From Marsupella aquatica (lineage: Eukaryota; Plantae; Marchantiophyta), in the NCBI GenBank assembly GCA_973895155.1, contig OZ316895.1, positions 16,002,816 through 16,066,815 on the forward strand: a stretch of 64,000 nucleotides of DNA, read 5' to 3'. Shown here one piece after another: positions 8,056 through 62,980 of this stretch. The notes under the pieces were generated by a model. The model made no database searches, was not told where the DNA came from, and saw nothing but the letters and a program-made list of their open reading frames with translations. The position numbers were made by a program, and so were the translations under genes. The stretch's first letter is position 1, and each line of letters begins with the position of its first letter.

Positions 8056-8390
8056 GGCCATAGATGAAATTACTACCCCACCCCCAAAAGACTCAAGCAC
8101 AGACACAAATACAACCATATTTGAAAGTAGGGTCAGTTACGAACTATAAGATATCAACAATTTGGCCATAGATGAAATTAGTGCCCCACCCCCAAACACA
8201 CCCACACACACACAATAATGATAAGCATGTCTGAAAATATTGGCTACTGCGAAATATATGTTTCTAACAATTCGGCCATAGATGAAATCACTGCCCCACC
8301 CAATTAAAAGACTCGCACATATACAAGACAACAATAGGGAACTTGAAAATTGAATGGATTGCCACAAATTTTTCTTGATCCAGGCCATAC
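8056..8390. repeat. Tandem repeat, ~108-110 bp unit, 3 copies plus the start of a fourth
   Basis: ggccatagatgaaatYaStRccccaccc recurs at ~8056, ~8164 and ~8274; ggccatac at ~8382. Confidence 0.8.
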
Positions 8391-14100: not shown

Positions 14101-17100
14101 TTAAGGGGGAACCAAGAGTTTTGCATATGGCTCGGCGGCGAAGGGAGCAGGCAACCACAATTCAGCGGATAGAAGGGACGGCTAATGGAAACCTTCAAGT
14201 AAATGATGGTCAAAAAGCACCTCTTCAGACAGAGCAACCACTTACAGCTCAGATGACAGAGGAGACAGCAAGTGGCGACGACCCAGGATTAAGTCCGATC
14301 CAGTCGCCCTCCGTTGAACGAATTTCTGGTGGATTCTTTGAGGGAGCTAACGGAGTTCCCAGGATGACCCCAAGGACACGGAAGTTGACCGATGCAATGC
14401 AGAATTTCCTTCATCAAAAGGCCACCCTGCTACGCCAATGGAAGGAGTAAGTGTTCATATATCTTGTGTCCATTTGATCATAACTATACAGCTTCAAGTA
14501 TTTGGGCCAACAGCGGTGGTATGTAGACATTGGAAGAGAGGACCTGTAACAAAAGAAACTCATTGGAATACTACATGGAGTTACATTAGAAACTTTTCTT
14601 TGGTCTCTAGACATATCTTTAGTGTAGGGGACTGAACAACTCGGCCGATGCAGGATGGAGCTGGGCAAACTACATCCCATGGCGTTAATTGGGCGAAGCT
14701 GTAAGGTATTGTCAGACTTGTGCGCTCAAGGATATATTTTAGGAGATTTCCATGTTGCAGATGGTTAGAGCTGTGAAATCTTGTAAAGAGGATGAGAACT
14801 CCTGTTTTTCCTTTGTCCTTAAACAAGGCTTCTTTTTTGCTTTTTACTAATCCGAATGAATGGAGGCCTTTGTCATCACCACTACTGTAAGATAACGCCT
14901 GTTCCATTTGCTATTTTCCTGACAACATGCCGGCCTGGAATGCGCAGATTTATTGGCCGCTGGACAGTGAATGGTATCCAGGAGTCATCCACGAATACAA
15001 TCCACAGACACGGAGGCACCGGGTGAGGGCGGATTCTGTTTAGTCAAAGCTATCCTATAGTTCAAACAGAAATCTATGCTATCACCCAGTTCTTTTCCTG
15101 GGAAGATTTCTTACATGTTGTGATTACTGCTTTCTTGCTTTTGCAGTGTGCAGTATAGTAGTAGATTTCGCACTTCCCGGCAATGTGCAAAGAATCCAGT
15201 TTTACCCTATCAAGCCCTGCTATTATGTTAGAGAAGTGAAGACAAATTTTTTTGGAAACTGGATACAGACACTTGCCTTACTCTAATTAAAGCTTAATTG
15301 CGGAAGATGGATGGAAGAAACACTTTTGTTTGAGATTTTCTAACCAGCCATATAGGAATGAATCTACATTTTTTCACTGTCAATTTGTTATGACACTTAA
15401 TTTTAGGTAGTCTTCTCGCTGTGGTTAAAGTCGTTATTAGGTATTCTTCTCGCTGTGGTTCAAGTCGTTTTCTAATCGTTGGACATTCTAACCTCATTGG
15501 ATTTTCTGATTTGCTCAGATTGACTATGAAGATGACGAGAGGGAATGGGTTCTTCTTGGTAAAGAGCGAGTCAAGCTCCATGTGTCAGCTGAGGAGAGTA
15601 AATACTTGGAGATGTCTTTTGGGGAAGGCTCTCTGATGAACCAGAAGAAGAAGTTGGATGCCGATGAGCTAGCTGTTTTAGCAGGTGGCATTGAAGGGTG
15701 TCATGGAGAGCTTAGTCATGGTGATCTTGTTTGGGCCAAAGTGAAAGGTGGGTTGCGAACACGTTTGAGGTTCTATTTCTACTATCAGATGACGTGCACT
15801 GGGAATTAAGGCTATTTTGCTATCGTTGAACTGTTGTGGGGTTATAAAGGACTCTGTTATTGCACTAGTTGATTTTTAACTCCAGGAAACGATGTTTCTT
15901 TACGTACCCAGGGTATCCAATGTGGCCGGCTTGCGTGATGGATGAGGAACACGCAATTGCTTGTAGGTTGGAACCTTCTCCTCGAGAAAGAACCGTGCCA
16001 GTCCAGTTCTTTGGTAGCTATGATCATGCCAGGTACTTTCCAAACTCAAATTTACATTTCCTTTCTTGGCCTCTTTAAAACCATTGTTTGATCCCTGATG
16101 ACTGTTTAGATGAATGTTTAAACTCTATAGGGGATATTCATGCCGAAATAAAATGCTCTCCAGGACATGGATAAACCATCTGTGGCTTAGGGTTATACTA
16201 TTTCCTAGCGTCTGTCTTGTTATTACTTGTCTGTGATTTTTCATTGATATACAAGAGTTGTTGTTTTCTACAGAAGTAGCACTGTAAAGCGATTATGCTA
16301 CACATTGATCACATAATTGAACTGGCGCTGGCAATCATTGCAAACGTCCGCATACATTGTATTTTTGGTGTGGGGATGTCATATCAGGCGGCTGGGGTCT
16401 GAGGAATGTGCCAAGTGTTTAATCCAGCTTTGAATATTGTCAATATCTGTCCTTACTGCGAACATCTAACTGCGCTGGTGCTAATGTTGTTCATGTAGGA
16501 TCAATTCGAAGAAGGTTGTGCCGTTTGCAAAAGGCATTATGCACAAATATCATACCAAGTGTAAAAGAACTGTATTTGAGCAAGGCCTGCAGGAGATTGA
16601 AAGGTATGCAGCTGGGATTGATTCCAACTTTCAGTAGTATATTTAAATGTCTTTGACAATAGTTGGCCCAAGAGATCTGTTTGTGTACAGCTGGGATTGT
16701 TTAACTCTCAGCTGTAGATTTTGAGGTCTTTGAGATTAGTTGGCCCAGCAGATTTGTTTGACAATTTCTTCGGCTCAAAGGTTAAAAGGTAGTTAGATGA
16801 AGTGACGTTGATGGTTACTTTTGGGTGCTAATATTAGTTTATCCGCAGTTTGCATAAAGTTGGAAATCTAGCCGGGTTCATAACAACGAAGACTTTTTGT
16901 CCCAGGTACTTGAAGGAGTGCAAACTCCCAGAACAAATGGAGCTCCTAGAGGAAGATGTGGAGGCTCTAGTGAACAAGAAGGCAGATGACATGACTGGTA
17001 GTGAAGAAACTGAGGAAGATCGGGATGGTTTCAAAGATGGGAGCAATAATGCAGGGAAGAAGACTGGGGACACCTCGTTAACATTTCCACTTGAAATTGG

Positions 17101-25089: not shown

Positions 25090-25488
25090 AACCATTCTTC
25101 TGACCGAGAAACACATAAAAGACAAAGTCCTCTTGAAAGAAGTAAAGCAGGTGTTCCACAGGGATGTCCAACCATTCAACCTACCGAGAAAGACATAAAA
25201 GACAAAGTCCTCTTGAAAGAAGTAAAGCAGGTATTCCACAACCATTCTTCCTACCTAGAAAGACATAAAAGACAAAGTCCTCTTGAAAGAAGTAAAGCAA
25301 AGCAGGTGTTCCACAGGGATGTCCAACCATTCTTCCTACCGAGGAACATAAAAGACAAAGTCCTCTTGAAAGAAGTAAAGCATAGCAGGTGTTCCACAGG
25401 GATGTCCAACCATTCTTCCTACCGAGGAAGACATAAAAGACAAAGTCCTCTTGAAAGAAGTAAAGCAGGTGTTCCACAGGGATGTCCA
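25090..25488. repeat. Tandem repeat, ~70-85 bp unit, 5 near-identical copies
   Basis: acataaaagacaaagtcctcttgaaagaagtaaagca occurs five times, four of them followed by ggtgttccacagggatgtcca. Confidence 0.92.
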
Positions 25489-26537
25489 ATTTCTGGCACT
25501 AGTATTGCGCATTTTATTTTGCAGGGAAGCGGACCGTGAATGAAGCCTGGTCCACCTCCGAGAAAAAACACGCAAAAATGATTTGAGAGCGGAATGAAAA
25601 GGGTAGTTCGTTGGTAAGAAAGGTGAAACGAAACAAGGGAAAAGGGTCAATGGAATTATGTAGCACTGAACAGTTTGGGAAAGGTCTGGTATGTAGTTTT
25701 GACAGCCTGCTTTCCGGAGTAGCTTCGGCCTCGGCAGCTCTAGCTTTCGTCTCATTACCAGTTGCAATAAATTTTGCTCGCTCAGTTTGGCATTCGTACC
25801 GTGAACTGACGACAGGAGGGAGCGGAGGGATCCCGAACAAAAACAATCATTGACTTGAGACTAAAAAATGTCGGAGAAGCTGGGGAGTAGATGCCCGTAG
25901 CGGTAACAAAGTAACCTCAGGTCGGGTGGCAGCACGACCTCATCAATGCCATAACCCGAGAACCTGCTTGATTGATAGAGCCAAGGCAAAGAAGTTCAGA
26001 CCCTTTCGTTTCTATGTCCAATGCAAAAAATTTCAGCAACCGAGTAATCGAGGAATGCAGTGACGAGTTATTGGGAAGTTGAGTCAGAAACAGCTACGCG
26101 GACAAAGAGACGTCTCAAATCGTTTGGTTTTTCAAAGACTGTTATATCAACAAATCCTCAAATCACCATATTGTACACATGTATTGAGAATTATCAAAGT
26201 ACAAACCTTAACTATACTTAATGCCAATCAATGAGTCCACAGTGCCTGGCATCCAACTTTCTCTCCTCGGGAGATTTTACTACATGATCATTTTGATCAA
26301 GTCCAGCAAAGACTGCCCAACTCATCCTAAAACCTAAATCTTCATTGATATAGAGGGATGAGATCTAGGATCCCTCCTATTATGACAAGAATGGTAAGGT
26401 CTGTGTTAAGCACTTCGCGCACAGTGAGTCCAAACAGATAGGTACCCACACATTGTAAGTTTGTACACAGCTATTTGTATAATACATTTTTTATATTATG
26501 CAGAACTTCTCTGACACAGAGCAGTTAAGGAATCACG

Positions 26538-32303: not shown

Positions 32304-33604
32304 ATGGTTCTTTCAAATGAGGAACTTGAAATCATTTTGTCAACAATTCTTGCATTCCAACAAGTGGTAGAGCAGCAAATTAATGCGATTTGCAGCTCTT
32401 GTTGGTAACTATTTTTTGGAATCAGGTGATGGGAGACTCCTTGCAAACTTGTTTATACTCTTCCAAACCATTCAACATGCATTTTCCAGAGACCATCGTC
32501 TTCTATCTGACAATTATATCGAGCCCAGATCTAGAGAATGGAGTGGCTGGTACCTTATGCATGTTATCAAAGACGATCTTGTCCGCTTCAAGCATTTGTT
32601 TCGCGTGTCACCCGCAACATTCATGTACATTTGCAACTTGGTTCGAGAAGATTTGACTACACATCCCCCACCTGGCCTTCGCAATTTGACCAACATGGCA
32701 TTGTCCGTTGAGCGACAAGTTGCCATAGTGCTGCATAGATTTGCTACTGGGTGTTTGTTGTTGACACTTTCGGAGATGTTTGGGGTTTCAGTTCCATGCA
32801 TTTCTGATGTGATTTGGCGATTTGTTAAGGCATTAACAAGACGCGGTAGAGAAAGACATTTGAGTTGGCCGCAAGGAGAGGCCATGGCAAGGGTGAAAGA
32901 GGAATTTTGCCAATTGCAAGGATTTCCAAATTGTTGTGGTGCAATTGATGCTACTCATTTTCAAGTGGAGTTACCTCTTGGAATAAACTCAACTGATTAT
33001 CGTGACTACAAACATGGCCAAAGCATTTCGATGCAAGCCATTTGTGATGGTCGACTTTGATTTTTGGATGTCTTTGCAGGATGGCCTGGTAGCATTCAAG
33101 ATTCACGACTTTTGAGAGTCTTAGGTTTTTATGATGACATTTTGACACAACGCACAAAACTCTCTGGTCCCACATTTACAGCTCCGACAGGAGTATATTA
33201 TTGGTGATGCTGGCTACCCTGCTTATCCTTGGTTGCTAAACCCTTTTCCAGCAACTAGAGAGCATAGTCAAAAGAGAGAGTTCAACTACAGGCTTAGCTC
33301 AACTAGGATGTGTGTGGAGCGTGCTTTTGGTCAAGTGAAAAATAGTTGGAGATTTGTTTCTCGCAAAATGTTTTGGCCGCATTCATATCGATTGCCACAT
33401 TATATTACATGTGCATGCCTTTTGCATAACATTCATATTGACCGTGGAGATGTATATGATCCAGCATGGGGTATAGATGCAGACCCTCCATATGAACCTG
33501 GAGGTCCCCCTGCTGCACCTCAAACTTCAAATAATGGGCGTAGATATCGTATTGCAATGATGAATCATTTGCTACCTGAGGGAGAATGGGGGCATGAAGC
33601 TTAG
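32304..33604 (+). pseudogene. Harbinger (HARBI1/DDE_Tnp_4-like) transposase, disrupted
   Basis: Motifs FRVSPATF, LSVERQVAIVLHRFATG, GFPNCCGAIDATH, GWPGSIQDSR, IGDAGYP, FNYRLSSTRMCVERAFG and CLLHNI. Frameshift near 32385, in-frame TGA at 33058-60, frameshift or deletion near 33185. Confidence 0.9.
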
Positions 33605-33783: not shown

Positions 33784-34923
33784 CTATTGGGATGGTCGTG
33801 AAGAATTTGCTAGCTTCTCTAGAAGAATGTCATTCAAACGTCCCATCTGCTCAGCTGTTGTGGTTGATGTTGTGGTGATTGTTGTTGCCAAAACAGCAGA
33901 TTGCCGCTCACGGCTTTCACAATCAAACTTGGCCATGGAAACCATCTTTGCACAACTATTGGCCATGGATTTCAAATGTGCTTGTTTGTCGTTCCCAATC
34001 TTGGCTGCCTTTCGCTTTACACCTCTATTGCCGGGGCCAGAGAAGTCCTGAGGGGATGATGGTTGCTGCACTCCATCTGTACTCTCTGTATTTGGTTGCG
34101 CCCTCTCATGTGTTGGTCCTGTGAAATGTGTCTGGCTTGACGATGCCGACCTGTCTTCCTCAACCCCAACATCATCATCACCTGTAGAATAGTATAGACA
34201 TGATTCCTTGCATTTAGTAGAGCAAAGAGGAAGGAGAGAAATGTCACCCCAAAAATTTACAGTACCAATCCACCATAACAAAAATTAAATTGCACAATGT
34301 AAATGAAAGAAAAAATTCATCAGGTAGGAAAAAATAGATTACTCACTTCCAGATGACAAGTTGAATGGGTCCTGGTTTGTATTGTGGTTCATCCTAGAGT
34401 AATCAGATAAAAACTTCGTAGGTGGCGTGATGCGTGGAACATCTTTATACCATCCCAACAGATTTGCATACAGATCAACTGAGAAATGAGTCGGGAATTG
34501 TTGTAGGCGTCGCTCCTTCTCATCCATGTCAAAGTAAGAAATCTGCCTGGTCTTCTCCTTTTTCTCATAATCGTAAATCTTTTTGAACTTGCTGTCAATG
34601 AGCTGCCACTTCTTCTTGCAAGAGGATGGATCTCGAATAGGTCGGGTGAACCCCTCATCCTCCATAAATTTTGCCACGGCCTTCCATTTCAACTTGGTGC
34701 TAGTCATCTTTTGTTGCGTAGAACCCTCCATGATAACATTGAGGTGTTCAGATCGCTTGGCTGCAATCAAGCACTTCATCTCCTCATTTGTCCAATCAGG
34801 CAACTTATTCTTGATTGGAGGTTGTGGTGCACCGTTAGGACCTGTACCAATGTTGAGGTCCAAGTCAACTAATCGAATACGTTCTCGTGAAGGTAGACCA
34901 CGGCTCTGCTTCTGGCTCGTCAT
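33784..34923 (-). CDS. Harbinger Myb/SANT-like (trihelix) DNA-binding protein; exons 34923-34347 and 34181-33784
   Basis: WTNEEMKCLI...KWKAVAKFM...RDPSSCKKKWQLI is the trihelix/Myb-SANT tryptophan pattern. gtgagt donor and tctacag acceptor are phase-compatible. Convergent with the transposase, as is common in Harbingers. Confidence 0.85.
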
Positions 34924-35077
34924 CTGACATTACACAGTAGTATGCAAGAGACACAATTTCAGAAGCAAAAATTCATAAACAACTCTTGCGCAAGTGAACT
35001 CATTAAATTCCAAGTAGACATAAGATTCACATTTCATTTCAATGCATACTTAAGTACATCCCAACTTTATTCAAGTA

Positions 35078-36200
35078 CTAGCTCAATACCCGTGCGTTGC
35101 ACAAAAGAAGTCATGTCGGCCAAGATGTCGTTGAGAAAAAAAGATGTCGTGTCGGCCAACAGGTCGTTGAGAGAAAAAATGTAGTGTCAGCCAAGAGGTT
35201 GTGGAGAGAAAAAGATGTTGTGTCGGCCAAGAGGTCGTGGAGAAAAGAGATGTAGTGTCGGCCAAGAGGTCGTGGAGAAAAAAGATGTAGTGTCGGCCAA
35301 GAGGTCATGGAGAGAAAAGATGTTGTGTCGGCCAAGAGGTCGTTGAGAGAAAAGAAGTCGTTGAGAAAAAAAGATGGCCAAGAGGTCGTTAAGAGAAAAG
35401 AAGTCATTGAGGAAAAAATTTGTCATGTCGGTCAAGAGGTCGTTGAGAAAAAAGATGTCATGTTGGCCAAGATGTTGTCAAGAAAATAATTGTCATGTCA
35501 GCCAAGATGTCGTTGAGAAAAAATATGTCATGTCAGCAAAGACATCATTGAGGGAAAAGATGTCATGTCAGCCAAGACATCGTTGAGTGAAAATACTCGT
35601 GCATTGCACAAAAGATGTCCTTGAAATCATTTTGCCAAAGATGCCATTATGTGAAAGATGTTGATAAGAAAAATGTGTCATTTTGCCAAAGATATCGTGA
35701 AGTACAAGATGTTATAAAGAAAAAAAAGGTGTCATTTCATCCAAGTTGTCATTATGTGAAAGATGTTATGAAGTAAAAAGTCAAGGAGAGAAGGAGCAAG
35801 TCTTTTTCTTTGTTTGTTTTTTACCCAAAATGCCCTTGCATTTGAATGGCGACCACTCTATACATTGGCGCAATGTTATATTATCGGTTTCAGGTTTAAG
35901 GTTTTAGGGTTTAGCAAAGATGACCATTTTATCGCTATCCTTTCAATCCCCGTGCGTTGCATAAAAGATGTTGTTTGGTTAAAGATGTTGTTTGGTTAAA
36001 GATGTTGTTGAGAAATAGCTCATGGTGCAAAAGATATCATTGAATAAAAAATTGCACAAAACTTTTTGTTGAATGAAAGATATCATTGTGCAAAATACTG
36101 GCCACGGCAGCCACAAAAGTTCCCTTTTTCTTTTTTCTCCTTGCACAAAAAAATTCTTTGAATAAAAGACGTCATTGCGCAAACCACTGGCTATGACAAC
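35078..36200 (-). mobile_element. Non-autonomous Helitron-like insertion(s) with internal minisatellite; 3' end at 35078, 5' end undefined
   Basis: Minus strand ends ...gtgcaacgcacgggtattgagCTAG|t (hairpin gtgc-aac-gcac, spacer, CTAG followed by T), the canonical Helitron 3' end. Degenerate copies of the same end at ~35592-35610 and ~35942-35962. Confidence 0.65.
35105..35590. repeat. Minisatellite, ~33-35 bp unit (gtgtcggccaagaggtcgttgagagaaaaagat), >10 copies
   Basis: Directly visible tandem units; explains the repetitive spurious ORFs 35083-35586. Confidence 0.9.
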
Positions 36201-49559: not shown

Positions 49560-50895
49560 TCGCGGGAAACAGCTGCTGGGATTATCTCTCCATTATTTGG
49601 TCGTCTACAATTCTTCTCTCACCTTACTTCATCTTTCCGACAATTTCTTTAATTGGAGGAATTCCGACCTGTAGGGCCAACTGTTCCAACCCGTGTGCTG
49701 GACCTATGAATCAAAAAATCATCCTACTGGAACTGACGGCACGCTCGAATCTGCAAGAGCTCAACCTGTCTGGGAATGCGTTGACACACGCTACTTTTCT
49801 GTCACTTTTGAATCTATTAGCGTTGAGAGTCTTAGACATAGGACATTAATCTTTTTTGCCTTGAAAACCCAAAGCAGGCCCATCCAACATAGGATAGACG
49901 TCCTGCTTTGGAGCATGCATTTCCATGTAGGGCAGCCACAAGGGGACAATGCTTTGGAGCATGCATTTCCATGTAGGGCAGCCACAAGGGGACAATACCC
50001 AGGGATCCGACAGGGACCCAGACCAGGAGGAAGAGAAGATTAAACCAGAACCCAAAGTGGGCAACCAAGGCTGAGGAGATAATCAATACTCCCACCACTA
50101 CACCCCACCCACACACACACACACATACCCTCCACACCCCTTATGTGTGGAGGGAGGATTGAACCTGGGACCTCTCGGTTCTAGGCTCATCCTCTGGCCA
50201 ACTGACCAAAGCCAGTTGGTTAGCAGACATTAATCTTATGACATTGTCCTGTGGTGAATATTGAAAATCAGAGACCCTCAATTTGAGCAACAATCAGATT
50301 TCTATTACCGACATATTGATTTTTCAATGGCTGCAGAAGTCGCAGACACTTAGCTTGAAAGCTAATTTTTTTCTCAATTGGGATCAATCCCACGATCTCT
50401 GGGTGCTGTGAACGGGGCTCTGAAGACCCTTCGCTTCCTTTCACTACGCTATATATAATCTGCTTTCAGGAGCGATCCCCAAAGAGCTGGGAACTACCCA
50501 GAATCTCACTGATATAGTACCTGCTCCTCTAGTCCATTGCTCTTCTCTCAGTGTAGCACTTATGTCCGAGGATCTCTAAACTGGACAAACAGTCGCTGAC
50601 ATTGGCTTGTTATCTGAGCTCCATGCCAGGCCGTTTACATAAGGAACAAAAGTTTAACAGGCTCCATCTCTCCCAGCCTGTTGGAGTGCACCTCTCTCTC
50701 TTAAATAATCTTTAGCTTCAATTTCTTTAGTGGGGCAGGAGATTCCTCTGGCATATATTGGGTGCGCTGAGCAAAGTGGAAGATCTTCTTCTCCATGTCC
50801 TCAATCTCGGAGGTGGAATTCGTGCCTCTAGGCAACATCTCCAGTCTTCATGAAGTTTTCCTCAACAGAAGCCAGTTCATTGGATACCTTTGATC
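49560..50895 (+). pseudogene. Degenerate plant extracellular-type LRR gene fragment (LRR-RLK/RLP-like), interrupted by a SINE
   Basis: Frameshifted LRR remnants: LHLSDN..LIGGIP, LQELNLSGNALT, LRVLDIGH(N), ETLNLSNNQIS, GAIPKELG, LSFNFFSG..EIP, GNISSLHEVFLNRSQFIG. Confidence 0.75.
49854..50225 (-). mobile_element. tRNA-derived SINE, ~370 bp, 12-bp TSD
   Basis: Minus-strand head has A box TGGTCAGTTGG and B box GGTTCAATCC; short A tail. TSD gacattaatctt at 49842-49853 and 50226-50237. Internal ~46-bp tandem duplication at ~49905-49996 and a (CA)n run. Confidence 0.85.
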
Positions 50896-51063
50896 ATTTT
50901 AAATCATGAGTGCCCATCAAAAACTATAACAACAGGTCATCTTATATATCAAAACAGAGGGCGCCAAACCGGGAGACCTGATCCCTCAGGCAAAAGACCC
51001 AATCAAGGGGGGAGACCACCAAGGGGCCAAGAAAAGCAAACCCAAAGACAGGAACCCAAACGC

Positions 51064-51743
51064 CTACCTATCAGCAAACTGGAGAGCCTGGTAAAGCTCC
51101 GGTGTGAACTGCATGGGGGGGTCAAGCAAAGGAATCCTACTAGTGGCCCTAAGACCAACAGCCTCCCCCCTACGAAGAATAGTGAATGCCTGTGCCCGCT
51201 GAAGCGCAACAGACACCCTCTGTCTAAAGAATGCAGTGATGACCGACACAGGGGGATAGGGCCTCCGCTCGACGTACTGAACTGCGCAAGAGCGAAGAAA
51301 ACGATCAAAGGATGGATGTAGCGCCCCAAAGACCTCCACGGCAAACGGATAGAAGAGGTCCTCGGGGTACCGCACAGCATAGGCCTCCTCCTTCAGCCGA
51401 GCTGCCCTCGCGGCGGCATGGCCTGGTACATGAGCCACCGAAGCCACGTTGGCCCCACAAGTCGGATCAGCAACAACGACGTCCCCAAGGGCACGAACAC
51501 CAGCGCGAGAGAATACCAGATCTGCTCGACGACGATCAGAAACCCCATCCCGTGGAGGTAACACATGTCTCTGCTCCTTCATGATATGGTAACCAGAGTC
51601 ACGGGCAATGGCCGCCACCACGTCCCGAATGTCGTCGTGTGTCGCAGTCCTCTCACTACCATGACCGCACCTGAGAATGTGAATGCCTTGCCCATCAAGG
51701 GGCGCTCCACAGACGCAAGTGGGCTGACCCAAGAGGCAAGGGT
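51064..51743 (-). pseudogene. C-terminal CCHC zinc knuckle and restriction-like endonuclease domain of the CRE-like LINE
   Basis: CVCGAPLDGQGIHILRC, ATHDDIRD, RRADLV, DVVVADP, KEEAY and FYPFAVEVFGAL match the RLE (PD..D-type) motif series. Confidence 0.85.
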
Positions 51744-52440
51744 TGTCATGCCGAGGGACAGTGCCTCTTGTGCACATCGGCACGTCCCTCGCATGCCCGC
51801 TAGGTATGGTTAGGGCTAGTTACTACTTGAGTTAGTGTCATGTTCTTGTAGCGAGTCTGGGCTATTCTTGAAGCAAAAGGGGTTTGTTAGTGTGACGCCT
51901 GGACCCGGTCCTACTTAGGGCATGTTTTTCTTTGCCGTTCTGCAGTTCTTCTTGAATCGCTGTGAGATAGAGTTTTTCAGAGGCTGCTCGTCGGTTCCGT
52001 ACACGGAATTCACACAGTGATTCGTTAGATGCTCCCGGCTGATCTTGGCATCTCGCCGGTTTTCGATTTGATTTCAGTACGTTTGTTTCTATCACGCTTT
52101 TTATTCAAGAAGAACTCCCTGTGAAATGTCAGCGGCAGTTGTATCTTACGTGTATACACATCAGGGAGGGACCGTTTTTGTTGTTTTTATTCCTTTTTAT
52201 TTTGACCCTCTTAGGCAAGGCCGACATACACGGGGCCAATTTCATTCTCTTTAGCCCCGGCCTCCTTGCCTCACGCCGTTTATTTTATTTGTGGGTTAAT
52301 TTTCTAAGCCTTGGGGTTGCCATTTCTTTTCTTGTCAGTTTCTTTCCCGACAACACCAGATACCACCAGACAAAGAGGGGGGGTGGAGACATTTCCTGTT
52401 GCTACCATTTCCAATTTGGCACCCCGGGTTAGCATGCAGC

Positions 52441-55400
52441 ATGTCAGCAGAGGAGTCGAGTCGTAGCAGCTCATCGCCACCGACACCTCGATACCACTTA
52501 CGGAGTGATCCACGACCATTGGTGCCAATTTCATTGGAGTCTCGGCAATTTTGACAACGTCCATAGACAGCAGCAGCACCCATACCACGCAATCCTTCTG
52601 CTCAATTTGGCAGTCGCTTCACCACTACCCCAAAGCCTGTTATCGCTTCTCTGCCCTTTACTCCTTTTGCATCAGTGGTTGTTCCAGCTTCACCGACATA
52701 CAACATGGATGCCAGCCACTCATCTGGCCGCATTGAGCGTTTCAGCGGGCGGCCAGGTACTGTTTCTTTGCGTGAGTTCAAATCCACTTTCTACACTGTC
52801 GTTTACGAATTGGAGTTGAAGTATGGCAGCAATTTCATAAATGCTTTTGCATTTAAGCAACTAGCCAGGTATGTGCACCACGAGGCTTTGGATGTGTATG
52901 AGCAGCACTCTCAACGGCTGCTTGCTGTCACACAATTGCCTAACCCTACCTATGCCACTGCAATTGTGGCTGCCTCACAACTGGCATTACAGAATGCCAT
53001 TGCAGCCCATGCTGCTGCTCCTGCCACTTCCCCTCCTACTCCAGTTCCCACCACTGCACCAGTTACTCCCACTGTCTTGGCACAGGCTACATCAGGCATT
53101 TCTCCCACCATTGATTCTCCTACCTTTGCTGATCCAGTGGCTGAGTTTTTCCAGGTTCTTGAATTGGAATTCCCAATCAAGAGTGCTGACAAAATCATGC
53201 AGTTGGCCACCTTTGTGAGGCAGCGCGATAAAACATTGAAGATGATGTATCGTCGGCTTCTCAAGTTGAAGGAGGACACCCAGAGCATCACTGATCTGGA
53301 AGCTGCTCATCGCTATCTTGGCACATTGGAGGGCACACCAGCTCTCCATTCGCAAGTGTTGCAGCAAGTATTCTCAAAGTTTGGAGACAGCTACACTTTG
53401 CTCAATGTCTATGACACTGCTGAGAAACTTGAATTGGCCCATGCACATTATGAGGCCAGTATTGCGCGTCCATCGCGATCCAGGTACCAGGCTGCTGCCC
53501 CTCCACTAACCACCCCTTCCCGTGTGCCACAGTATGGTTCCAAGCCCAAACCAGCCCATGCTGCTTTCATGCTGTCATCTTGCAACTACTGTGGTAACCC
53601 CAATCACAAGGCTAATGAATGTGATATTGTTGCTGAGGACCTGTCTTGTGATTTTTGCGGGAAAGTGGGTCACTTGGAGGCAGTTTGTTTTGCCAAATTC
53701 CCAGAGAGGAAGTAGCTACGACAGCAGGCCCCTCATCCTACTCCTGCTTCCACTCCCCCACCAGCTAGGAGGGCTCCTACTGCATCAGTTGCTCCTCCTT
53801 CCAGTGGCAAAGCACCCGGTGCTAACAAATTGCCCAAGCAGCAACAGAAGCAACCAGCTCAGAAGGAGGCTCACAATGCACAGGCAACTCAACTCCAGTC
53901 TCTGACTCATGAGGTTGAGTCATTACGTGCCCAACTTGCCAACATCAAAGGCAAGTCCACTGTCTCTACTGGTCCTTCTCAACCTGGCCCAGGCACCACT
54001 GACAGTTCAGCACCCATTCCCCGCTCTTTCTATGGCTTGCCCTTTGATGCTCATATGGGTGAGTGTGTGCTGTCCTCTGCTACACAGCCCGGCCTTACAG
54101 CAGAATTTTTAGATTCCTTCTGCCTTTCCTATTTTGCTTACCAGCAGGCCAGTGCTGCCTCCTGTATTGCTCCCACACGCCGCATTGTACAGGCTGATGG
54201 TCTTGCTGCTGGTCCTATGACTAGAGCCAGGGGAGCTCGGGCTGTCATGCCCCAATCTTTTCAGCCACTCACACTTGCTGAAGAGCGCACCTTGTTGGCG
54301 AGGGGGGAGGGAGTTGCAGCTACATCCATTCCACCACCAGGTGCTGCTGACATTTCACAGGGAGTTGTTTTTCCTGAGCTGCTTGAGCATTTCACCTCCG
54401 GTATGGCACAAAGGATTCTTACCACTCCACTTTTCAGTTGCCATGATTTACAGCTGGATGCTAGAGCTGTCATCAGAGCGCTAGAGGGCTCACTGCATTC
54501 TTCATCAGCCCCTGTGACACCGGTTTTGGAGGTCCAATCCCATGTATATACTGGACCTTCTTCTTCTCCATTGCATGCTTCCACTGGTTTGGCTATACCA
54601 GTACCAATTTCCAGTGGTAGAGATGACAGTATTGCTACAGATTGTGTGACCAGAGCTACACTTGATTCTGGTCATGCTGCTCCATCTTTCCTGGCTATGC
54701 TGTTGAGTGGGAAGACCGTGGACACTAACTCCCTTCACAAGGTACCTCATCATTTGCCAAAAGTGGTGCCTATTGACAGGACTTTAGTTTCCACCACCAT
54801 TGCCATTGTTGACAACAGGAATTCAGCAGTCAAGTTGGAGGGTCACACTCCTCAGGTGGTCATGCTAGACATAGGCGCTCAACCAGTAATCTTGGGCATT
54901 CAGTTTGCCAAGAAGATGGGACTGCTGACTGATCATTTACAGCAATCTAGGTGGCACATTCGGACTGCTAGTGGCACTGTGGAGGATGTGCTGGGTGAGA
55001 TTTCTACTTTACTCACTCTCACTTTTAATGGAGGTACAGATCAGGAACTGCATTTCCCAGTCAGATGTTTGGTTACCAATGCCACTACGTATGATGTGCT
55101 CATTGGGCAGGAGGCTTTGTTCCCACCAGGTTTTACCATTGACAACTGGCATGAGCATGCATACTACAGAGTTGATTGGCATACGGATGGCTCACACTTG
55201 GGATACATTCCACTTGATTTGCATGGTGCCCATACCCCTATGGCTCACCACTGTGTGTTGAAAGCAGTGCACACAGCTACCTATGTCAACCACCCATTGC
55301 AGGATTGGATTGAGGAGGATGATGATGAGGTGGCTACTGCACATGCTGCTGCACGTATAGCAGCACTTTCCAGCAACGTGGATCATCAACCAGAGGTGGT

Positions 55401-56292
55401 ACAACGGCTCCAAGCAGCCCATGGACCTTTGGTGGCTGCATTGCACAAATTTGAGGACCTTGGGCAGCATAATGGACAACCAATAGCCCCAATCTTGAGC
55501 GTACCAGTTACATGGACTCTTCCTTCAGATGGCCTTACATTGCTTGAGCTTGTTGGTGGCATTTCTACAGGCCTGGAAGCTCTCCTAAAGTCTGGCATGG
55601 TGGTGAAGCAGTACATCTATGTGGATATTGATCCAGGTGCAAGGCAAGTGGCTGAATCCCGTCTGCTGGACTTTTCAGAGCGATTTCCCCAGCAGTTTCC
55701 ACATAGTGCATGGAAGTCTGCATTTTCTTTCTTCCCTCCAGATATCCAGCTTGTCCAGCACCGGCACTTAACCCTTCTTGGCTCCCTTGATTTGATCATA
55801 GCTGGTTGGGAATGCCAAGGGTTTTCAGCTGCTGGTCACGGTGCTGGACTGCATGATTCTCGTTCTGGCCTTTTCACAGCATTGGTTCAGATTCTCACCT
55901 GGGCTCAATCCCTTTATCCTGCTGTTGGTTATATCATTGAGAATACTCCATCTCAGTTTGACCAGCGTCCACAGGTCAAAGAGGATTTCAGTGTGGTCCA
56001 GCACTACTTGGGACCACCCCTTCTCATTGATGCAGTGCACTGTGGTTCTTATGCACATCGTCTTCGTAACTTTTGGACTAACCTTGCACCACCTTCCTTG
56101 CTGGAGATGGCTCTTCACCACACATCCAGGGACACTAACCTTACAGTGGACCAGATTTTGGATCCTGACAGTTCTTGCCAACCAGTTACACGGCAAGAAC
56201 CAGCACCTTGGTATCCAACCAATACCATTGGACAATGGAGAGGCTGGCACTTCTGGCTCTTTAAGCATGAGTACATCAGGTCCTATTCCTAG
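52441..56292 (+). pseudogene. Gag - aspartic protease - C5 cytosine methyltransferase frame, interrupted by 3 stops
   Basis: One frame from ATG 52441 (MSAEESSRSSSSPPTPRYHLRSD) with stops TGA 52552, TAG 52564 and TAG 53713. Two zinc knuckles CNYCGNPNHKANEC and CDFCGKVGHLEAVC (53581-53688). Protease MLDIGA (54862-54879) and YDVLIG. DNMT motifs at 55534-56240. Confidence 0.88.
55534..56243 (+). other. C5 cytosine DNA methyltransferase domain (motifs I-VIII plus start of the target-recognition region) inside the retroelement polyprotein
   Basis: Motif I LELVGGISTG, II YIYVDID, III PDI, IV LIIAGWECQGFSAAG (catalytic Cys 55813-15), V DSRSGLF, VI YIIENT, VIII AHRLRNFWTNL, in the correct order and spacing. 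Confidence 0.9.
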
Positions 56293-59200
56293 TGTTGCCA
56301 ACTACACATTTATCATGGGCAACCACCTGAGTAAAAGACAGAAGGACCAGCTGCTGAATTTGCTCCTCAAGCATGAGAATGTGTTTGCTTTCTCTATGAA
56401 GGACTTGGGTAAGTGCAAGACTATGCAGTTCTCCATTGAGTTGGCTGATGAAACACCTATCTTCAGGCGGAGACACCGTTTGAGTAAGCATGAGTGGCAG
56501 TTGGTGGATGAGAGGTGCCAAGAGCTTTATGAAGCTAGTCTTATTCAGCCATCTACATCAGATTTTGCGGCAGCTACAGTGATGCCAGCAAAGAAGGATT
56601 CCAGTGGATTGTGGACAGAGAAGCGCATGTGTGGGGACTACAGGCCATTGAACCTGGTCACACCCCAGGACAGGTACCCCATGCCATGGCCAGAGGAGCT
56701 ATTTGACAGCATTGGAGACTCAGACATCTTCACTCTTGTGGATCTAAGGCAAGGCTTCAACCAGATTTTGCTGCTTGTAAAGGACCGCAAGAAAACAGCT
56801 TTCCATGGTAGTAACCAACTATGGGAGTGGTTGGTGATGCCATTTGGCTTGAAGAATGCGCCCATATTCTTTCAAAGAGTCATGGACCAGGTTCTTCAAG
56901 GTGCTGAGTTTCTAAAATGCTACATTGATGATGTGTTGGTCCACAGCAAAGGATTTGACCAGCATCTACTTGACCTTGAGGAGCTATTCATGAGGCTTAA
57001 GAAGGTGAACCTAAAGATACACCCCAAGAAGTGTGAATTTGCTGTCAAATCAGTAGTATATCTTGGGCATCGCATTCTTCCAAATGGAACCATGGCTCAG
57101 TGGGCCAAGGTGGTATCCATCTTGGAAATGCCCACTCCTACCGATGTTCACACTTTGAGGAGTTTTATTGGGTTGTGCAATTACTACCGGATCTACATCA
57201 AAGATTTCAGTACCATTGCACACCCATTGTACTCTTTGTTGAAAAAGAATGTGCCTTGGACATGGAGTACAGATGCTGAGGCAGCATTTGCCACTTTGAA
57301 GGAGAAGCTCTCAGAATACCCAGTGCTAAGAAGACCTGATTTCAGCAAGGTCTTTGTGCTACACACAGATTGGAGTGCCCTTGGGATTGGTGCCATTCTG
57401 GGCCAGCATGATGAGGAAGGTAAAGAGTACGTCATTGCCTATGCATCCAGGAGCAACAATCAGGCAGAGAGTCATTATTCTTCTTATGAGGGTGAATGCC
57501 TTGTTGTTGTGTGGGCTGTCATACATTACAGGCCCTACCTCTATGGGACCAGGTTTGTTCTCTACACCGACCACCAGCCCTTGAAGTGGTTGATGACCAA
57601 CGACAAGCTTACTGGCAAGCTTGCTCGTTGGGCGCTCATACTCCAGGAGTATGATTTTGAGGTAATTCATAGGCCTGGTGTGACACATCAAAATGCTGAC
57701 ACTATGTCCCGCAGCCCTTTGATTGCCTCTGATGATCCCTCAGATGCACGGCAGGATTTTGACCAGGTTTCCATCCTGCCTACATTTCATGCATCTACCT
57801 ATCTTGCTTTGCTGCCATGCTACATTGTTGACCAACCTGTGGTGGACATATCGGAGGACAGCGACACTCTGAGATTTCTGCAAGATGGGGAGTACCCCAC
57901 CCATGTTACTGCTGCCCAGAGAGACCGAATTCAGCAAAGGTCCAAGCACTACTTGTGGAAGGGAGATCATCTTGTGCGCTGCTTGCCAGACAGGGAAGTG
58001 GTGGTTCCACCCATTCATGAGAGGGTTGGCCTTATCCGCAAGGTACATTCTGAGCTTGGTCATTTTGGTGTTAAGAGGACTTATAGCCTCTTGGTCCCCC
58101 ATTATCATTGGAGAGGCATGCATGGTCAGGTTCGAGATGTTATTGCCCGGTGTGAGCAGTGTGATAGGGTAAGGACTTCTTTCACATCTCGGCAATCCAC
58201 ACTTCATCCACTCCCTATTCAGGGCATGTTTTATTGTTGGTCATGTGATTTGGCTGGAGAATTACCCCTCACATCTCGGGGTAATCTCTACATCATGATC
58301 ATGATAGAGCATTTCTCCAAGTGGATAGAACTTGTGGCATTGCCGTATAAGACCTCCTGTAGCACCAGCCAGGCATTCTTGCAACAAGTTCTCAGCCGCT
58401 TTGGAGCTTGTGCAGAATGTCTCACTGACCAAGGCTCAGAGTTTAGAGGAGAGTTCCAGGAGCTGCTTGATCAGGCTCTCATTGATCATCGCCGGACATC
58501 ACGAGATCACCCACAGGCAGATGGCTTGGCAGAGCGCATGGTTCAGACATGCAAGAAGGGCCTTCGGAAGATCTGCCTCACCAAAAACAAGGAGGATTGG
58601 GACCTGGCCTTACCCTACATTGCCATGGGGTATAGGATGTCCAGACATGCATCACTGTCTAACTTTTCTCCCTACTTCTTGTTGTTTGGTCGTCACCCAG
58701 TTCCACCTTCTGCTATTGCTTCTCACGTGCTTCAGGTGGTGGACTTGGATTCAGTTGTGACTTGGTCTGATGTGATCTTTGAGAGGGCTGCCCTATTCAG
58801 GAGGGTTATGCCCATGGCCATGGAGAATTTGGCCATTGCACAGCACAGGGACACACTGCGTTATGCACACACACGAGGGGGCACTTTTCAGCCCAAGGTC
58901 AGGAAGTTTGAAGTGGGAGATTTTGTGTACTTGCAGCGGCAAGCTAACGACACCCTGGACACCTCTACCAGTCGCACTATTCTCAGGGTCAAAGCTATTC
59001 GACCGTCTGGAGTGCTAGAGTTACAAGGGGCAGATGGGCGCACAATTGCTGACAATGCCAAGAATTGCGCCCCTTGTCATCTGCCTAACCTGGATCCCAC
59101 CATTGTGACTTCTACTTGGATTCCACCTGTGGACTACCCTTGCAAAGTGTGTTTGCGAATTGATGATGTTGACCAGATGCTGCTGTGTGACAATTGCAAT

Positions 59201-59293
59201 GGAGGGTACCATCTTTTCTGCCTTCGGCCTGAACTTACCCAGGTGCCAGAAGGGTTATGGTTTTGCCCTTCTTGTGCTCCACGTGCTATCTGA
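56240..59293 (+). CDS. Pol: reverse transcriptase, RNase H, integrase, C-terminal PHD finger (uninterrupted frame)
   Basis: RT RMCGDYRPLN, DLRQGFNQ, VMPFGLKNAP, YIDD (56921). RNase H LHTDWS, YEGE, YTDHQPL, NADTMSR. Integrase HSELGH..CEQC, SCDL, TDQGSEF, GLAERM. PHD CKVC..LLCDNCNGGYHLFCL..VPEGLWFCPSC (59141-59276). Confidence 0.93.
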   Translation, partial: EAGTSGSLSMSTSGPIPSVANYTFIMGNHLSKRQKDQLLNLLLKHENVFAFSMKDLGKCKTMQFSIELADETPIFRRRHRLSKHEWQLVDERCQELYEASLIQPSTSDFAAATVMPAKKDSSGLWTEKRMCGDYRPLNLVTPQDRYPMPWPEELFDSIGDSDIFTLVDLRQGFNQILLLVKDRKKTAFHGSNQLWEWLVMPFGLKNAPIFFQRVMDQVLQGAEFLKCYIDDVLVHSKGFDQHLLDLEELFMRLKKVNLKIHPKKCEFAVKSVVYLGHRILPNGTMAQWAKVVSILEMPTPTDVHTLRSFIGLCNYYRIYIKDFSTIAHPLYSLLKKNVPWTWSTDAEAAFATLKEKLSEYPVLRRPDFSKVFVLHTDWSALGIGAILGQHDEEGKEYVIAYASRSNNQAESHYSSYEGECLVVVWAVIHYRPYLYGTRFVLYTDHQPLKWLMTNDKLTGKLARWALILQEYDFEVIHRPGVTHQNADTMSRSPLIASDDPSDARQDFDQVSILPTFHASTYLALLPCYIVDQPVVDISEDSDTLRFLQDGEYPTHVTAAQRDRIQQRSKHYLWKGDHLVRCLPDREVVVPPIHERVGLIRKVHSELGHFGVKRTYSLLVPHYHWRGMHGQVRDVIARCEQCDRVRTSFTSRQSTLHPLPIQGMFYCWSCDLAGELPLTSRGNLYIMIMIEHFSKWIELVALPYKTSCSTSQAFLQQVLSRFGACAECLTDQGSEFRGEFQELLDQALIDHRRTSRDHPQADGLAERMVQTCKKGLRKICLTKNKEDWDLALPYIAMGYRMSRHASLSNFSPYFLLFGRHPVPPSAIASHVLQVVDLDSVVTWSDVIFERAALFRRVMPMAMENLAIAQHRDTLRYAHTRGGTFQPKVRKFEVGDFVYLQRQANDTLDTSTSRTILRVKAIRPSGVLELQGADGRTIADNAKNCAPCHLPNLDPTIVTSTWIPPVDYPCKVCLRIDDVDQMLLCDNCNGGYHLFCLRPELTQVPEGLWFCPSCAPRAI

Positions 59294-59512
59294 CTTTTCT
59301 TCAGCCCTCCTTTTGGCTGTGGTCTGGGGGGGATACAGAGGTTTACACCTCCACTACGTACATACCACCTCAGTTGCTCTTTCTTGGCACTTATGAATGT
59401 GATTGGACTTTTTCTATGCATGTTGGTTGCTAGCAGCTTGCACATATGCATTGCCGGTGAGTTGTATGTTTTCGATACACTATGGCTACGATACTATATG
59501 TCACGACAGGGT

Positions 59513-61950
59513 GAGGAAGACCCAACCGAAGGCGCGTGGATGTGGTAAAAATAAAAGAACTCATACGAAAGGGGGCCCAAAGAGGACTCGCCGATAGCCA
59601 AGACCCCGAACCAGCGCCCGAACCGGATAAAAGACGTGCCCGTACCAAATCTGAGGGTGCCTCAGAAAGCATGCTGGAAAGGGTGTGTCGGTGCATGCGA
59701 TCAGAAATCACCTGTTGGACTCGATCCAGGCTGTCCAAAACAACTCCCTCGAAAGCAGGGACCACGCTCTGCACGTCCTCTGGCAATAATGACCGTGCAT
59801 GACGAAGCTGGACCTGAAAAGGGAGAGCTCCGTTCTCCACTCCCATGACCGAGTCAGAGAGGATAGGCCGAAGGTCCACAATGAAACGTGAGGCCAGGGC
59901 AGGGGCCACCTGCGCCCAACTACCAAGAAACGTGCAAGGGGCAGTGTCCACTGCCAAGGCCACCCCCATACCACCTCCCGATGGGGGTAACGCAGCCTGC
60001 CTAGCCGCAAAAGAACCATCCTCTCCATCAAGGGCTCCCGGACCAATGAGGTGACCAAAGACTCTCATCACAGTGGTGTCAAATGAAGAGAGTAAGGACA
60101 GGAACATCACGGTAGGAGGGACTGTCCGGAGAAGATAGGAAGGACGCCGAACAAAACATAGGACCAGGATCAAACAGGAGATCTGGGCATCCCCCATGGA
60201 CACCAACTGGTCAATATGCAAAATGTTCTGGGACAGGGCCGCTAGAAGAAAATCCTGCTCAAAGGCCGCTCCCCCGAAAGGCACCCCAAGGACTCTAATG
60301 CCCTCGAGCCGAATGGGTATACCAAGAGGTGGGGTGAAAGAGTGGGGGAGGGGGAGACGAGACCAAACCCCACACTTCCAAGGCTGAACTGAAAGACCAA
60401 TGAGGGTAAGCTGGTCCACAAAGTGGGAATAGGCGTCCCCAACAAGCAAGACCCGGGCAACAATGAGAGTGTCATCCGCAACAGAAGGAAACATGCAACC
60501 CGGGAAGGCAGCCAAAGAGGCATGAATAGCACGAAGGTGCGCCATAGCAAACAACGCCCCACCAAGGGGGTCACCCTGCCTAGTCCCGGACTCGGATGAG
60601 ATGGTCACATAGGACCCAGGAACAAGATGGTCAGGGTAAACCAGGGGGGTCGGGGCCCCATAGAAGGCCCGGGCAAAGGGGATGAGGGATGCAATCTCCC
60701 CTCCAGCGGCCCGCAACTCCTCAAACATGACCCGACGGGATACAGAGTTGAATGCGTTAGCCACATCCACCTGAATGACAGCCCAGTCGGGGGTGGCCAC
60801 TCCAAACTGGTGAGGAAAAAAGTGTGATGAAAAGGGAGCCCGAGTTTGCAAACAAACACAACGGCTCACCAAGCGGAACAAGACCTCCCCGATGGCCAAG
60901 GGCCTGACACCCCCAGTCTCTTTGGCCATAGCCAGAAGCCGACAGGCCCCCAAAAGCCGAGCAACCACAGGAGGAATACGGCCCCCCGCTACATGGGCAC
61001 AGACCTGGAACAACTCAGAAAAACCAGATGCCGAGTCGTCGGGACAAAAGCAATCGCGTAGGTGCTCGAACCTCATCCCAGAAATCCCGCCCGCGGATCG
61101 GCGGGGTAGATGCAGGAAGACAGAGGAGAACACCTCGCGGGATAGGGAGAACTCGGTCTCAGGGGTAAAGCTCCCAAGAAAACTAGGAACCTCGGATGCA
61201 GCCGGGGGATGAAGAGACCAAAAGGCAAGAACGGTCTCGGCTGAAGGAGGAGAGGGGGAGAGGGGGACCAAGGAGCAGGCGGCCCGAGAAAACTCCCCCG
61301 CCTGTCCCAATAGAAGGCACTGGCGAAGCCTGCACTGCACAGGAGGGACAGATGACTCCTCGACAGGCTCAGAGGTCCGAGAGGCCATCGCTAACAACCT
61401 ATGGTAATACTCCTCATGAAGCAAAGCCCAATCCCCAGAAAGGAACCGCTACAACCGGACCAAGGTCTCCCTATGCCCGGATGCCCCCCCCCCCGCGGAG
61501 GAAGGACCAGCACCCAATGAGGGAGCAGCAGGAGCAAGGACCAAGCCCCAACATCTGAGGGGTCGCGAGCCAAGCGGTCGAAGGGAAGACGAAAGGCTCT
61601 CTGAAGGAGAGGCCGCACGGGCACGGGAATCCTAGTAAACAAACGGGGATGCCAAAAACCGGGATAGAGGGCAGCAAGGACATCAAGGTGAGCCAACCAA
61701 TCCCAAGAGGAGGGAGGGGGCCCAGATGGAGGTGGGGGGAGGACGGGGGGTGGAGGCAAGAACGACGGTGGCGTGTCAAACCTGACGGCCGGTACCAACT
61801 ATGACAAGCATCGCACTGGACACGGGGATCAGAAGGGGAAGTGGGAGGTGAGGAGGGACGATGGCGACGGACGGAAAGAGGGGTGGAGTAGGGGGAAGCC
61901 AGAGGGCGCGGAGTGGGGGGAGGGGAACTCAAAATGGGAAGAGGCTCCAT
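59513..61950 (-). pseudogene. N-terminal zinc finger and RT portion of the CRE-like LINE ORF, with frameshifts in poly-C tracts
   Basis: CDACHSWYRPSGLTRHRRSC zinc finger. RT motifs SAGGISGMRFEHL, AKETGGVRPLAIGE, QFGV, VDVANAFNSV, GTRQGDPLGG, SVADD, GIRVLGVPFG. Frame changes near 61735 and 61485; apparent short deletion between QFGVATP and DWAVIQVD. Confidence 0.88.
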
Positions 61951-62735
61951 GAGAAAATGAAAATATAAAACAAGGATAAAGAAGAAACATATAAAGTAGG
62001 CAAGTCAAACAAAAACAAACAGAAAATATTACTAAAGCGACAACAAAAACAAAAACAAAGGATGGATGACCAAAGCAAAGAACCTCGACCCGGTAGTGAC
62101 AACAACCGCACGTCGAAAAGGACCGCTGCAGCCCCGCGCAAAGGAAGCTGTCGCGGAGGCACCCCCTCCGGGTAGAACACCAAGAAGCCACACCACAACG
62201 AGCTGCCCCAGGCCACGAACCAACCCCGGCACAGAGCCAGGAGAAAAAGCGCCAGACCCCGGGCCAGGGCAGGGCCGATCACCAGGCTAGAGCAGAAATC
62301 CAACCAGCAGAGAAGGCTCCCAAGCACCAAGACCTCCCCCCCAAACAGAACCGAGGGGCCCGGAAAACAGCCCCCAAAGGGCCAAAGCCAGCAGTACGAG
62401 GAGCACCGAAAGAGGAGAACCAAGGATGAAGAGCCCGGGGCCAACAACCCACACAAAAATCCCGGTAAGGGGGAAAGGGGGGGGGGATCCGAGGGTCACC
62501 CCGGCGGAAGGAGCCCCTCTCCGAGGGGCAGGGGGTCCCTCATAATGAGGCCCCCCCAAAAAGGGCCCCTGCGCATGCCCCTCCCTGGCTTCGCCACACG
62601 TCAGCCACCACAGCGCGTCAGCGCCCAGCCGTGCGCAACCCAGCCCACCCCCGCCGCGCTCGACCTCGCTCGCCCGACCCTCCCGCCACTCACTCGCTCC
62701 CCCGCTCCTCCCGACCCCGGTTCGCTCCGCTCCGC

Positions 62736-62980
62736 TCCACTCTTCATAAACTAAGTTTTCCTCAACAAAAGCCAGTTCATTGGATACCGTTGATTTTTCT
62801 TAAATCACAACTGGCCATCAAAAACTAAAAATAAGATTAAGCCTCAAAAAGTATAACAACAGATAGTCTCCACTTTTCATGAAGTTTTCCTCAAGGGAAG
62901 CCAGTTCATAATTGGATACCTTTGATCTGCCCATCAAGAATTATAATAAGCATTAAAAACTATAACAACAGGTCCCGCCA
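62736..62980 (+). repeat. Copies 2 and 3 of a ~105-130 bp tandem unit whose first copy lies at ~50839-50940 on the other side of the LINE
   Basis: ctccaStYttcat..aagttttcctcaa..aagccagttcat..tggatacc..ccatcaa..aaaa.tataacaacag present at 50839, 62736 and 62868. Confidence 0.8.

Follow-up and report, generated by a model that had tools for sequence, protein, structure and literature searches.

A Gypsy retroelement without a pair of long terminal repeats (LTRs) occupies positions 51744–59508 of a 64,000-nucleotide stretch of the genome of Marsupella aquatica (Marchantiophyta; contig OZ316895.1, 16,002,816 to 16,066,815, forward strand), the whole of which is referred to here as the window. This copy is likely a damaged member of a Gypsy family that encodes a DNA methyltransferase and a PHD finger and whose LTR is permuted: it reads A-genes-B, where A and B are the two halves of the LTR, whereas the commoner form in the family is A-genes-B-NN-A-B, and the permuted LTR (B-NN-A, NN being a spacer of two nucleotides) is probably opened by the integrase at a palindrome in its interior. 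Successive copies of the halves are termed A1 and A2, and B1 and B2; positions count from the first nucleotide of the window, and features lie on the + strand unless otherwise indicated.

Insertion boundaries and split repeats

The element extends from TGTCATG at 51744 to GTCACGACA at 59508, and GGGT stands on both sides of it, at 51740–51743 and 59509–59512. That this is a target site duplication (TSD) is seen from the long interspersed nuclear element (LINE) that hosts the insertion, in which the reading frame RLGLPHP|CLLGQ is continuous once the element and one TSD are removed and broken if both TSDs are kept; the empty form of the LINE (51738 joined to 59508) occurs in contigs of two of the four public sequencing runs. 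The element ends form inverted repeats of only 7 bp, and self-BLAST (word size 7) detected no direct repeat linking them, the top match between the 3′ and 5′ parts being 9 nt (E 1.5). The sequence 3′ of the Pol stop measures 215 nt, and that 3′ of a G7 tract (59326–59332) 176 nt. The original prediction of TG...CA ends with a 4-bp GGGT TSD, of a missing LTR pair and of 215 bp after the Pol stop with no counterpart at the 5′ end is confirmed for this copy, the ends by both TSD copies and the restored LINE frame, and the lengths and the lack of a repeat by self-BLAST. The ends are those made by an integrase, and the layout is not the canonical LTR...LTR arrangement.

The relation between the two ends emerges from contigs of the window's own family, which are short and do not phase whole elements, the best public run containing 56% of the window's words. 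In three of the four runs, 59508 is joined to 51744 across 2 nt (B to A), and in all four 52104/52105 is joined to 59333 (A to B). These joints delimit A as 51744–52104 (361 bp), beginning with the attachment arm TGTCATG, and B as 59333–59508 (176 bp), closing with the attachment arm GTCACGACA; both halves are recognized as repeats in relatives, where B has the same length. Nine contigs of run X4 reach 51744 with unlike flanks. A drop of about 35-fold in contig depth past 52115 in run X1 was set aside, as summed depth is not copy number.

Relatives were obtained from a metagenome scan in which 80 of 548 matching stretches were kept; distinct ends were counted after repeats of one insertion had been merged by their flanks and two B matches without a G-tract left out, and scans of viral contigs yielded no relatives. 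A G-tract followed by the 176-bp block B was found in 24 distinct 3′ ends, 16 of which continue with 2 nt and A2, and 14 of those 16 with B2; the remaining 8/24 stop after B, as in the window copy. The whole form, TG-A-genes-PPT-B-NN-A-B-CA (PPT, polypurine tract), was recovered at eight loci, with a TSD that is perfect in five, matches at three of four bases in two and is absent in one, and the whole A-genes-B form at three loci (L040, L047 and L077), each with a perfect TSD. The short L047 and the long L051 agree in their TSD, in the left flank over about 250 bp and in the right flank over 5 kb at 97%, which fits either an insertion that later lost A2-B2 or a collapse during assembly; no clean B1/B2 crossover is visible in the B of L047. 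A1 and A2 behave as co-copied parts of an LTR would: they agree in length within 1 nt in 8/8 elements, the lengths being element-specific, and in six of eight the nearest sequence to A1 is the A2 of the same element. B1 is likewise nearest to its own B2 in four of six. No relative scanned has the same TGTCA repeat at both its start and its end: the earlier view that this is not a canonical LTR element stands, and copies with two LTRs beginning TGTCA, which would have contradicted it, are missing among the relatives, the repeats being split instead. B upstream of A1 was found in none of 24 distinct 5′ ends, and an upstream ATAGT in L030, considered as a remnant of B, was rejected. In L026 (14469–14759), A2 stops exactly at the border of the primer-binding site (PBS); beyond it lie unrelated sequence and an inverted piece of gag, as might be the case at the right end of a raw cDNA.

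Predicted priming sites and the internal palindrome

The borders of A and B coincide with sequences expected to prime reverse transcription. In the window and the relatives alike, B follows immediately on the G-tract, the tract at 59326–59332 being the PPT, and A is adjoined by a predicted PBS (52105–52116), which is complementary at 12 of 12 positions to AGTTCTTCTTGA at 51944–51955, a predicted self-primer that would form the 5′ end of the RNA; none of 2000 shuffles reached this match. The helix between the two is present in both the minimum free energy and the centroid folds and closes the predicted structure, the z-score of the whole fold being only −1.8. Of 22 related 5′ ends, six match at 12/12 positions, four at 11, five at 10 and seven at 8–9, and in 14 of the 15 best-matching relatives (10–12 of 12) the primer lies 32–34 nt below a TATA-like box. 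Compensatory changes in primer and PBS number two between the window and L002, with one more in L030, and the distant L081 has an unrelated 13-bp primer/PBS pair 29 nt below a TATA. As judged from these sequences, the putative self-primer pairing is kept in three different sequence families, with the geometry of Tf1. A 12-bp inverted repeat in L083, with no TATA above it, was excluded from this count.

Two other candidates were discarded as priming sites: TGGCACCCC at 52417, which resembles a tRNA-type PBS and lies 310 nt from the border of A, and a 31-nt inverted repeat (52107–52137 with 54342–54372, 90%; self-BLAST E 8e-6) that overlaps the PBS and has a comparable match in none of 11 relatives (best E 0.004). 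The latter may be a template-switch product, or an RNA switch of a subfamily that hides the PBS.

Because B starts at the end of the G-tract and A stops at the PBS, the copied LTR would be B-NN-A, and the TG and CA ends of the element would meet in its middle as a palindrome, CA-NN-TG. The spacer at the B1|A2 junction is 2 nt in 16/16 distinct junctions (GC in five, GT in five, AC in four, AT in two), and all four forms can be traced back to CAGCTG if C has changed to T on either strand. The sequence GACAGCTGTCA recurs in the distant L081, L082 and L083 (48–53% identity in the integrase region); the palindrome was not found in L084–L086, two of these contigs ending too early. L081–L086 are eukaryote-type retroelements on contigs filed in prokaryote genome bins, where they are likely contamination. 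The earlier suggestion that the 3′ LTR had collapsed to the 10-bp near-palindrome TGTCACGACA does not hold, since 59333–59508 is the whole of the 176-bp B and TGTCACGACA corresponds to a single arm of the attachment palindrome. At the other junction, A2|B2, the start of the PBS is joined exactly to the end of the PPT in 10 of 14 cases, with two joints 2 nt short, one with a substitution and one in which B is mostly missing; this fusion of a PBS-defined end with a PPT-defined end is what the joining of two cDNA ends would make.

Proposed replication cycle and competing explanations

The arrangement of these sites suggests the following cycle. Transcription would start at 51944 in A1 and run into A2; the first 12 nt of the RNA would fold back to pair with the PBS and serve as minus-strand primer as in Tf1, and the strong-stop DNA would jump to A2. 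Plus-strand priming at the G-tract would then produce a linear cDNA, B-NN-A-genes-B-NN-A, whose LTRs would begin with ATACA and close with TTTAT, that is, with ends devoid of the TG/CA pair. Joining of these ends, in a 2-LTR circle or by an end-to-end jump of the reverse transcriptase (RT), would create the A|B joint. The integrase would then nick each strand of the left CA-GC-TG palindrome 3′ of CA and leave 2-nt overhangs, as in normal 3′ processing, for which a nick 3′ of CA and 2-nt 5′ overhangs are described in the available text of PMC11054761. Opening at the left palindrome would insert A-genes-B-A-B with a 4-bp TSD. The A-genes-B copies could arise by recombination between B1 and B2 after insertion, by cutting of both palindromes or from a 1-LTR circle; the three routes predict identical sequence and TSD, and the window copy fits each alike, A2-B2 having presumably been lost from it or never been part of it. 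The A-genes-B form is predicted to be a dead end, because without A2 the RNA has no R, and hence no terminal redundancy, at its 3′ end.

For the family at large, we lean, if only slightly, towards a green-lineage Gypsy clade with an attachment site in the middle of its LTR, which would integrate by default through a self-primed, joined-end (circular) intermediate cut by the DDE integrase at the built-in CA-GC-TG, with a strict bias for one of the two identical palindromes. Several observations weigh against such a cycle. A freely opened 2-LTR circle should also yield A-B-A-genes-B, yet in 0/24 distinct 5′ ends does B precede A1, which calls either for a strong bias between the palindromes or for a directional route without a free circle. 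The PBS match of 8–9/12 in 7/22 relatives is at the level of chance, and 32 nt above the primer the window carries TACTTA in place of TATA. All relatives come from contigs of metagenomes, in which B-A-B could collapse to B. In retroviruses, moreover, the integration precursor proved to be linear DNA and not the circle junction, according to the accessible part of PMC11054761. The circular assembly of L081 was rejected as evidence of circles, its 127-nt end overlap being a feature of the assembly.

The directional route would retain the permuted LTR and self-priming; the integrase would act on the left palindrome while the cDNA is linear, and within the particle the B piece would be shifted, or copied, to the right end. 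We treat this route as a version of the joined-end cycle, not as its opposite, and its products are identical, so that the two are not separable by sequence; the contrast between B before A1 in none of the 24 5′ ends and A2 in 16 of the 24 3′ ends agrees with it, as do the A|B joint variants of 1–2 nt, and no enzyme step is known that would perform it. It is regarded as unlikely, though the most credible of the alternatives. Replication of the DIRS/Ngaro type, in which the RNA would run into B2, the template would already contain the A|B joint, and the ends would be rebuilt from the split repeats without PBS/PPT priming, accounts naturally for the one-sided layout, which is that described for SymbioDIRS in the available portion of PMC5890265. 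It leaves unexplained, however, why the PPT marks the start of B, and a covarying primer site the end of A, and the presence of TSDs and the absence of a tyrosine recombinase further reduce it to a very improbable explanation.

The short form at the window locus might also reflect an assembly collapse of B-A-B to B, since young copies have a B1 and a B2 that hardly differ and the L047/L051 pair could be such a case; nevertheless, the block is only about 540 bp long, B1 and B2 differ by 5–14% in the relatives, enough to assemble apart, and the short form recurs in a third of the related 3′ ends, so that a collapse is improbable here, and it would concern the window copy only and not the mechanism of the family. 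The least probable reading, already largely refuted, is that of a repeat-free family that moves with no need of strand transfers between LTRs, in the manner of a reverse-transcribing Ginger, which the original prediction had offered as one option. The 7-bp inverted ends can be cited for it, as can the bare A-genes-B layout of the window copy and of 8/24 related 3′ ends, with perfect TSDs at 3/3 whole loci; however, A2 is present in 16/24, both joints occur in the window's own family, PPT and self-primer site lie exactly at the borders of B and A, and the sequence above the inferred start site could not be regenerated without A2. The likeness to Ginger seen earlier is superficial, RT, RNase H, Gag and protease being present.

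Gene content, surroundings and related systems

The genes are ordered Gag, protease, cytosine methyltransferase, RT, RNase H, DDE integrase and PHD finger, with the methyltransferase between protease and RT. Gag (52705–53715, from its open reading frame (ORF) and motifs) has two CCHC knuckles (53581 and 53647) and closes at a stop, 53713–53715, that is missing from most family contigs and across which protein P0002 is open. An aspartic protease (54745–55260; LDIGA at 54865; PF13975, PF13650 below cut-off) is followed by the C5 cytosine methyltransferase (55519–56235; PF00145, E 3e-6), which retains the N-terminal motifs ELVGG, WECQG and IIENT and has lost its C-terminal part, about 485 nt being missing near 56230, at its end, relative to L002, together with a change of frame. 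RT (YIDD at 56921) and RNase H lie at 56315–57700 (PF00078, PF17917, PF17919), and the integrase (58010–58720; PF17921, PF00665) has HHCC and D-D-E residues (SCD 58241, TDQG 58424, AERM 58529), the latter intact in the alignment to the integrases of Ty3 and foamy virus. A PHD finger (59141–59276; PF00628, E 7e-11) closes Pol, whose stop is at 59291–59293. Of the complete Gypsy gene set previously claimed, the presence of the genes stands and their integrity does not, given the Gag stop, the 485-nt loss and the frame change, and the copy is probably dead; the methyltransferase and PHD finger are components that the earlier description did not contain. Pfam searches of the three ORFs of the element found no tyrosine recombinase and, at E 0.1, no chromodomain after the integrase, where the PHD finger stands instead. 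The nearest named proteins are from Calypogeia fissa (77–82%), then from Klebsormidium, Closterium, Tetraselmis and Riccia. About 70 nt at 52349–52416 are skipped by several family contigs, as their joints indicate.

The host LINE lies on the − strand, with its RT-bearing part at 59513–61448 (PF00078, E 4e-7) and its C-terminal part, without a Pfam match, at 51064–51743, and its frame stays open to either side of the element. The C-terminal part shows Cys/His and restriction-like nuclease motifs by eye, and its motifs give the LINE a CRE/NeSL-like look. A motif of about 100 bp, in three copies at 79–83% (approximately 50840–50940, 62735–62830 and 62867–62974), stands on both sides of this LINE and may represent the target repeat or a long duplication of a site-specific LINE. 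Elsewhere in the window are exons of a UTP6-like gene (1638–4062, +; PF08640, PF24892), an 844-aa open frame without a Pfam match (11916–14450, +), probably a large exon, and short tandem arrays at 25090–25489, 35103–35593 and 8014–8336. A transposase-like ORF recognized by eye without a Pfam match (32371–33060, +) faces a Myb/SANT ORF (34339–34929, −; PF13837), the pair being a probable PIF/Harbinger remnant. An Rfam search of the 64-kb window gave no matches.

As in Ty3/Gypsy elements, Gag precedes protease, RT, RNase H and integrase (with the methyltransferase inserted), the integrase has HHCC and DDE, the ends are TG...CA with a TSD in the 4–6 bp range, and, by sequence, a PBS follows the 5′ repeat and a PPT precedes the 3′ repeat; two direct flanking LTRs are lacking, with none in the window copy and split repeats in the relatives. 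Ginger DNA transposons have TGT ends, a 4-bp TSD and a Gypsy-like integrase, and are integrase-only elements with terminal inverted repeats (TIRs) and without RT or Gag; the window element differs in having RT, RNase H, Gag and protease, and inverted ends of 7 bp instead of long TIRs. Split direct repeats are found in PAT and Ngaro, which belong to the DIRS order, and in IS3 and IS30 circle junctions of abutting ends are cut by a DDE enzyme. With the DIRS order, as represented by SymbioDIRS-Dnmt3 in the accessible text of PMC5890265, the family shares the A-genes-B-A-B layout, whereas DIRS elements use a tyrosine recombinase and this family a DDE integrase, TG/CA ends, a 4-bp TSD and a PPT.

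Palindromic LTR-LTR junctions are reported to be cut by the foamy virus integrase (PMC1180852, available part), and integration from the circle junction was the 1984 model for spleen necrosis virus (SNV), as recounted in PMC11054761. Common to these systems and the present one is a DDE enzyme acting on a palindrome in which two attachment arms abut. In those systems the cDNA ends make up the junction, and for retroviruses this is not the accepted route; here it would lie inside the LTR, and the cDNA ends would have no attachment pair. In Tf1, the RNA's first 11 bases pair with the PBS and are cut off by RNase H (PMC7175516, in part), and in Tf1/sushi and Tcn1 elements the first 11–12 nt have their complement in a site that closely follows the 5′ repeat, according to the text available for PMC7175516 and PMC6317226. 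The window family shows the same complementarity between PBS and putative RNA 5′ end, with covariation, the start being placed from sequence; Tf1/sushi and Tcn1 elements have ordinary LTRs and mostly chromodomains, and the window family split repeats, methyltransferase and PHD finger.

The closest described element is KnitGypsy-Dnmt3 of Klebsormidium nitens, with a C5 methyltransferase inside a Gypsy Pol (De Mendoza et al. 2018, PMC5890265), whose repeat structure is of DIRS type according to the legend of Fig. 4c and whose methyltransferase showed no activity in yeast, in an assay called inconclusive; no primer site, attachment site or mechanism for it was found in the available text of that paper. 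The window copy differs in its land-plant host, in lacking A2-B2 and in its truncated methyltransferase; the A-genes-B-A-B repeats, not present in it, are seen in the eight full relatives and indicated by the own-family joints. A Klebsormidium protein, P0102, which may be KnitGypsy-Dnmt3 itself, has the methyltransferase before RT and 45% identity to the window Pol. In a FastTree analysis of 122 RT-RNase H rows, the window RT and Klebsormidium share a broad group that is separated from ordinary Gypsy (support 0.73, and 0.996 on the other side), with weak deep nodes and a weakly resolved inner order, and the window RT is not sister to P0102. In P0007, P0011, P0027, P0039 and L086, the methyltransferase is placed after RNase H and not before RT, an arrangement confined in the tree to one clade (support 0.999), and several such elements carry an extra C-terminal domain with amino-methyltransferase-like motifs recognized by eye (compare the "EpiLTRs" in the accessible part of bioRxiv 10.64898/2026.05.21.726589). 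The available text of that preprint, on methyltransferase-bearing LTR elements, gave no repeat layout, and that of the REXdb paper (PMC6317226) no mention of PHD or methyltransferase; beyond the legend remark, no mechanism for a split-LTR Gypsy layout was found in the literature searched, with subscription papers, Repbase and theses outside the search.

If the proposed cycle is correct, the circle-junction route that was proposed for retroviruses in 1984 and then abandoned would run as a normal life cycle, in an LTR retroelement whose replication ends differ from its integration ends and which would combine retroviral-type priming, a DIRS-like layout and an IS-like junction cleavage. The family provides a short, defined substrate on which to ask if the integrase of a retrotransposon is capable of opening a palindrome in the interior and inserting it in a single step. 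The split-repeat layout explains calls of "LTR-less Gypsy", and programs that search for LTR pairs are likely to miss this multi-copy family, through which land-plant genomes receive a DNA methyltransferase together with a PHD reader; KnitGypsy-Dnmt3 was described from an alga.

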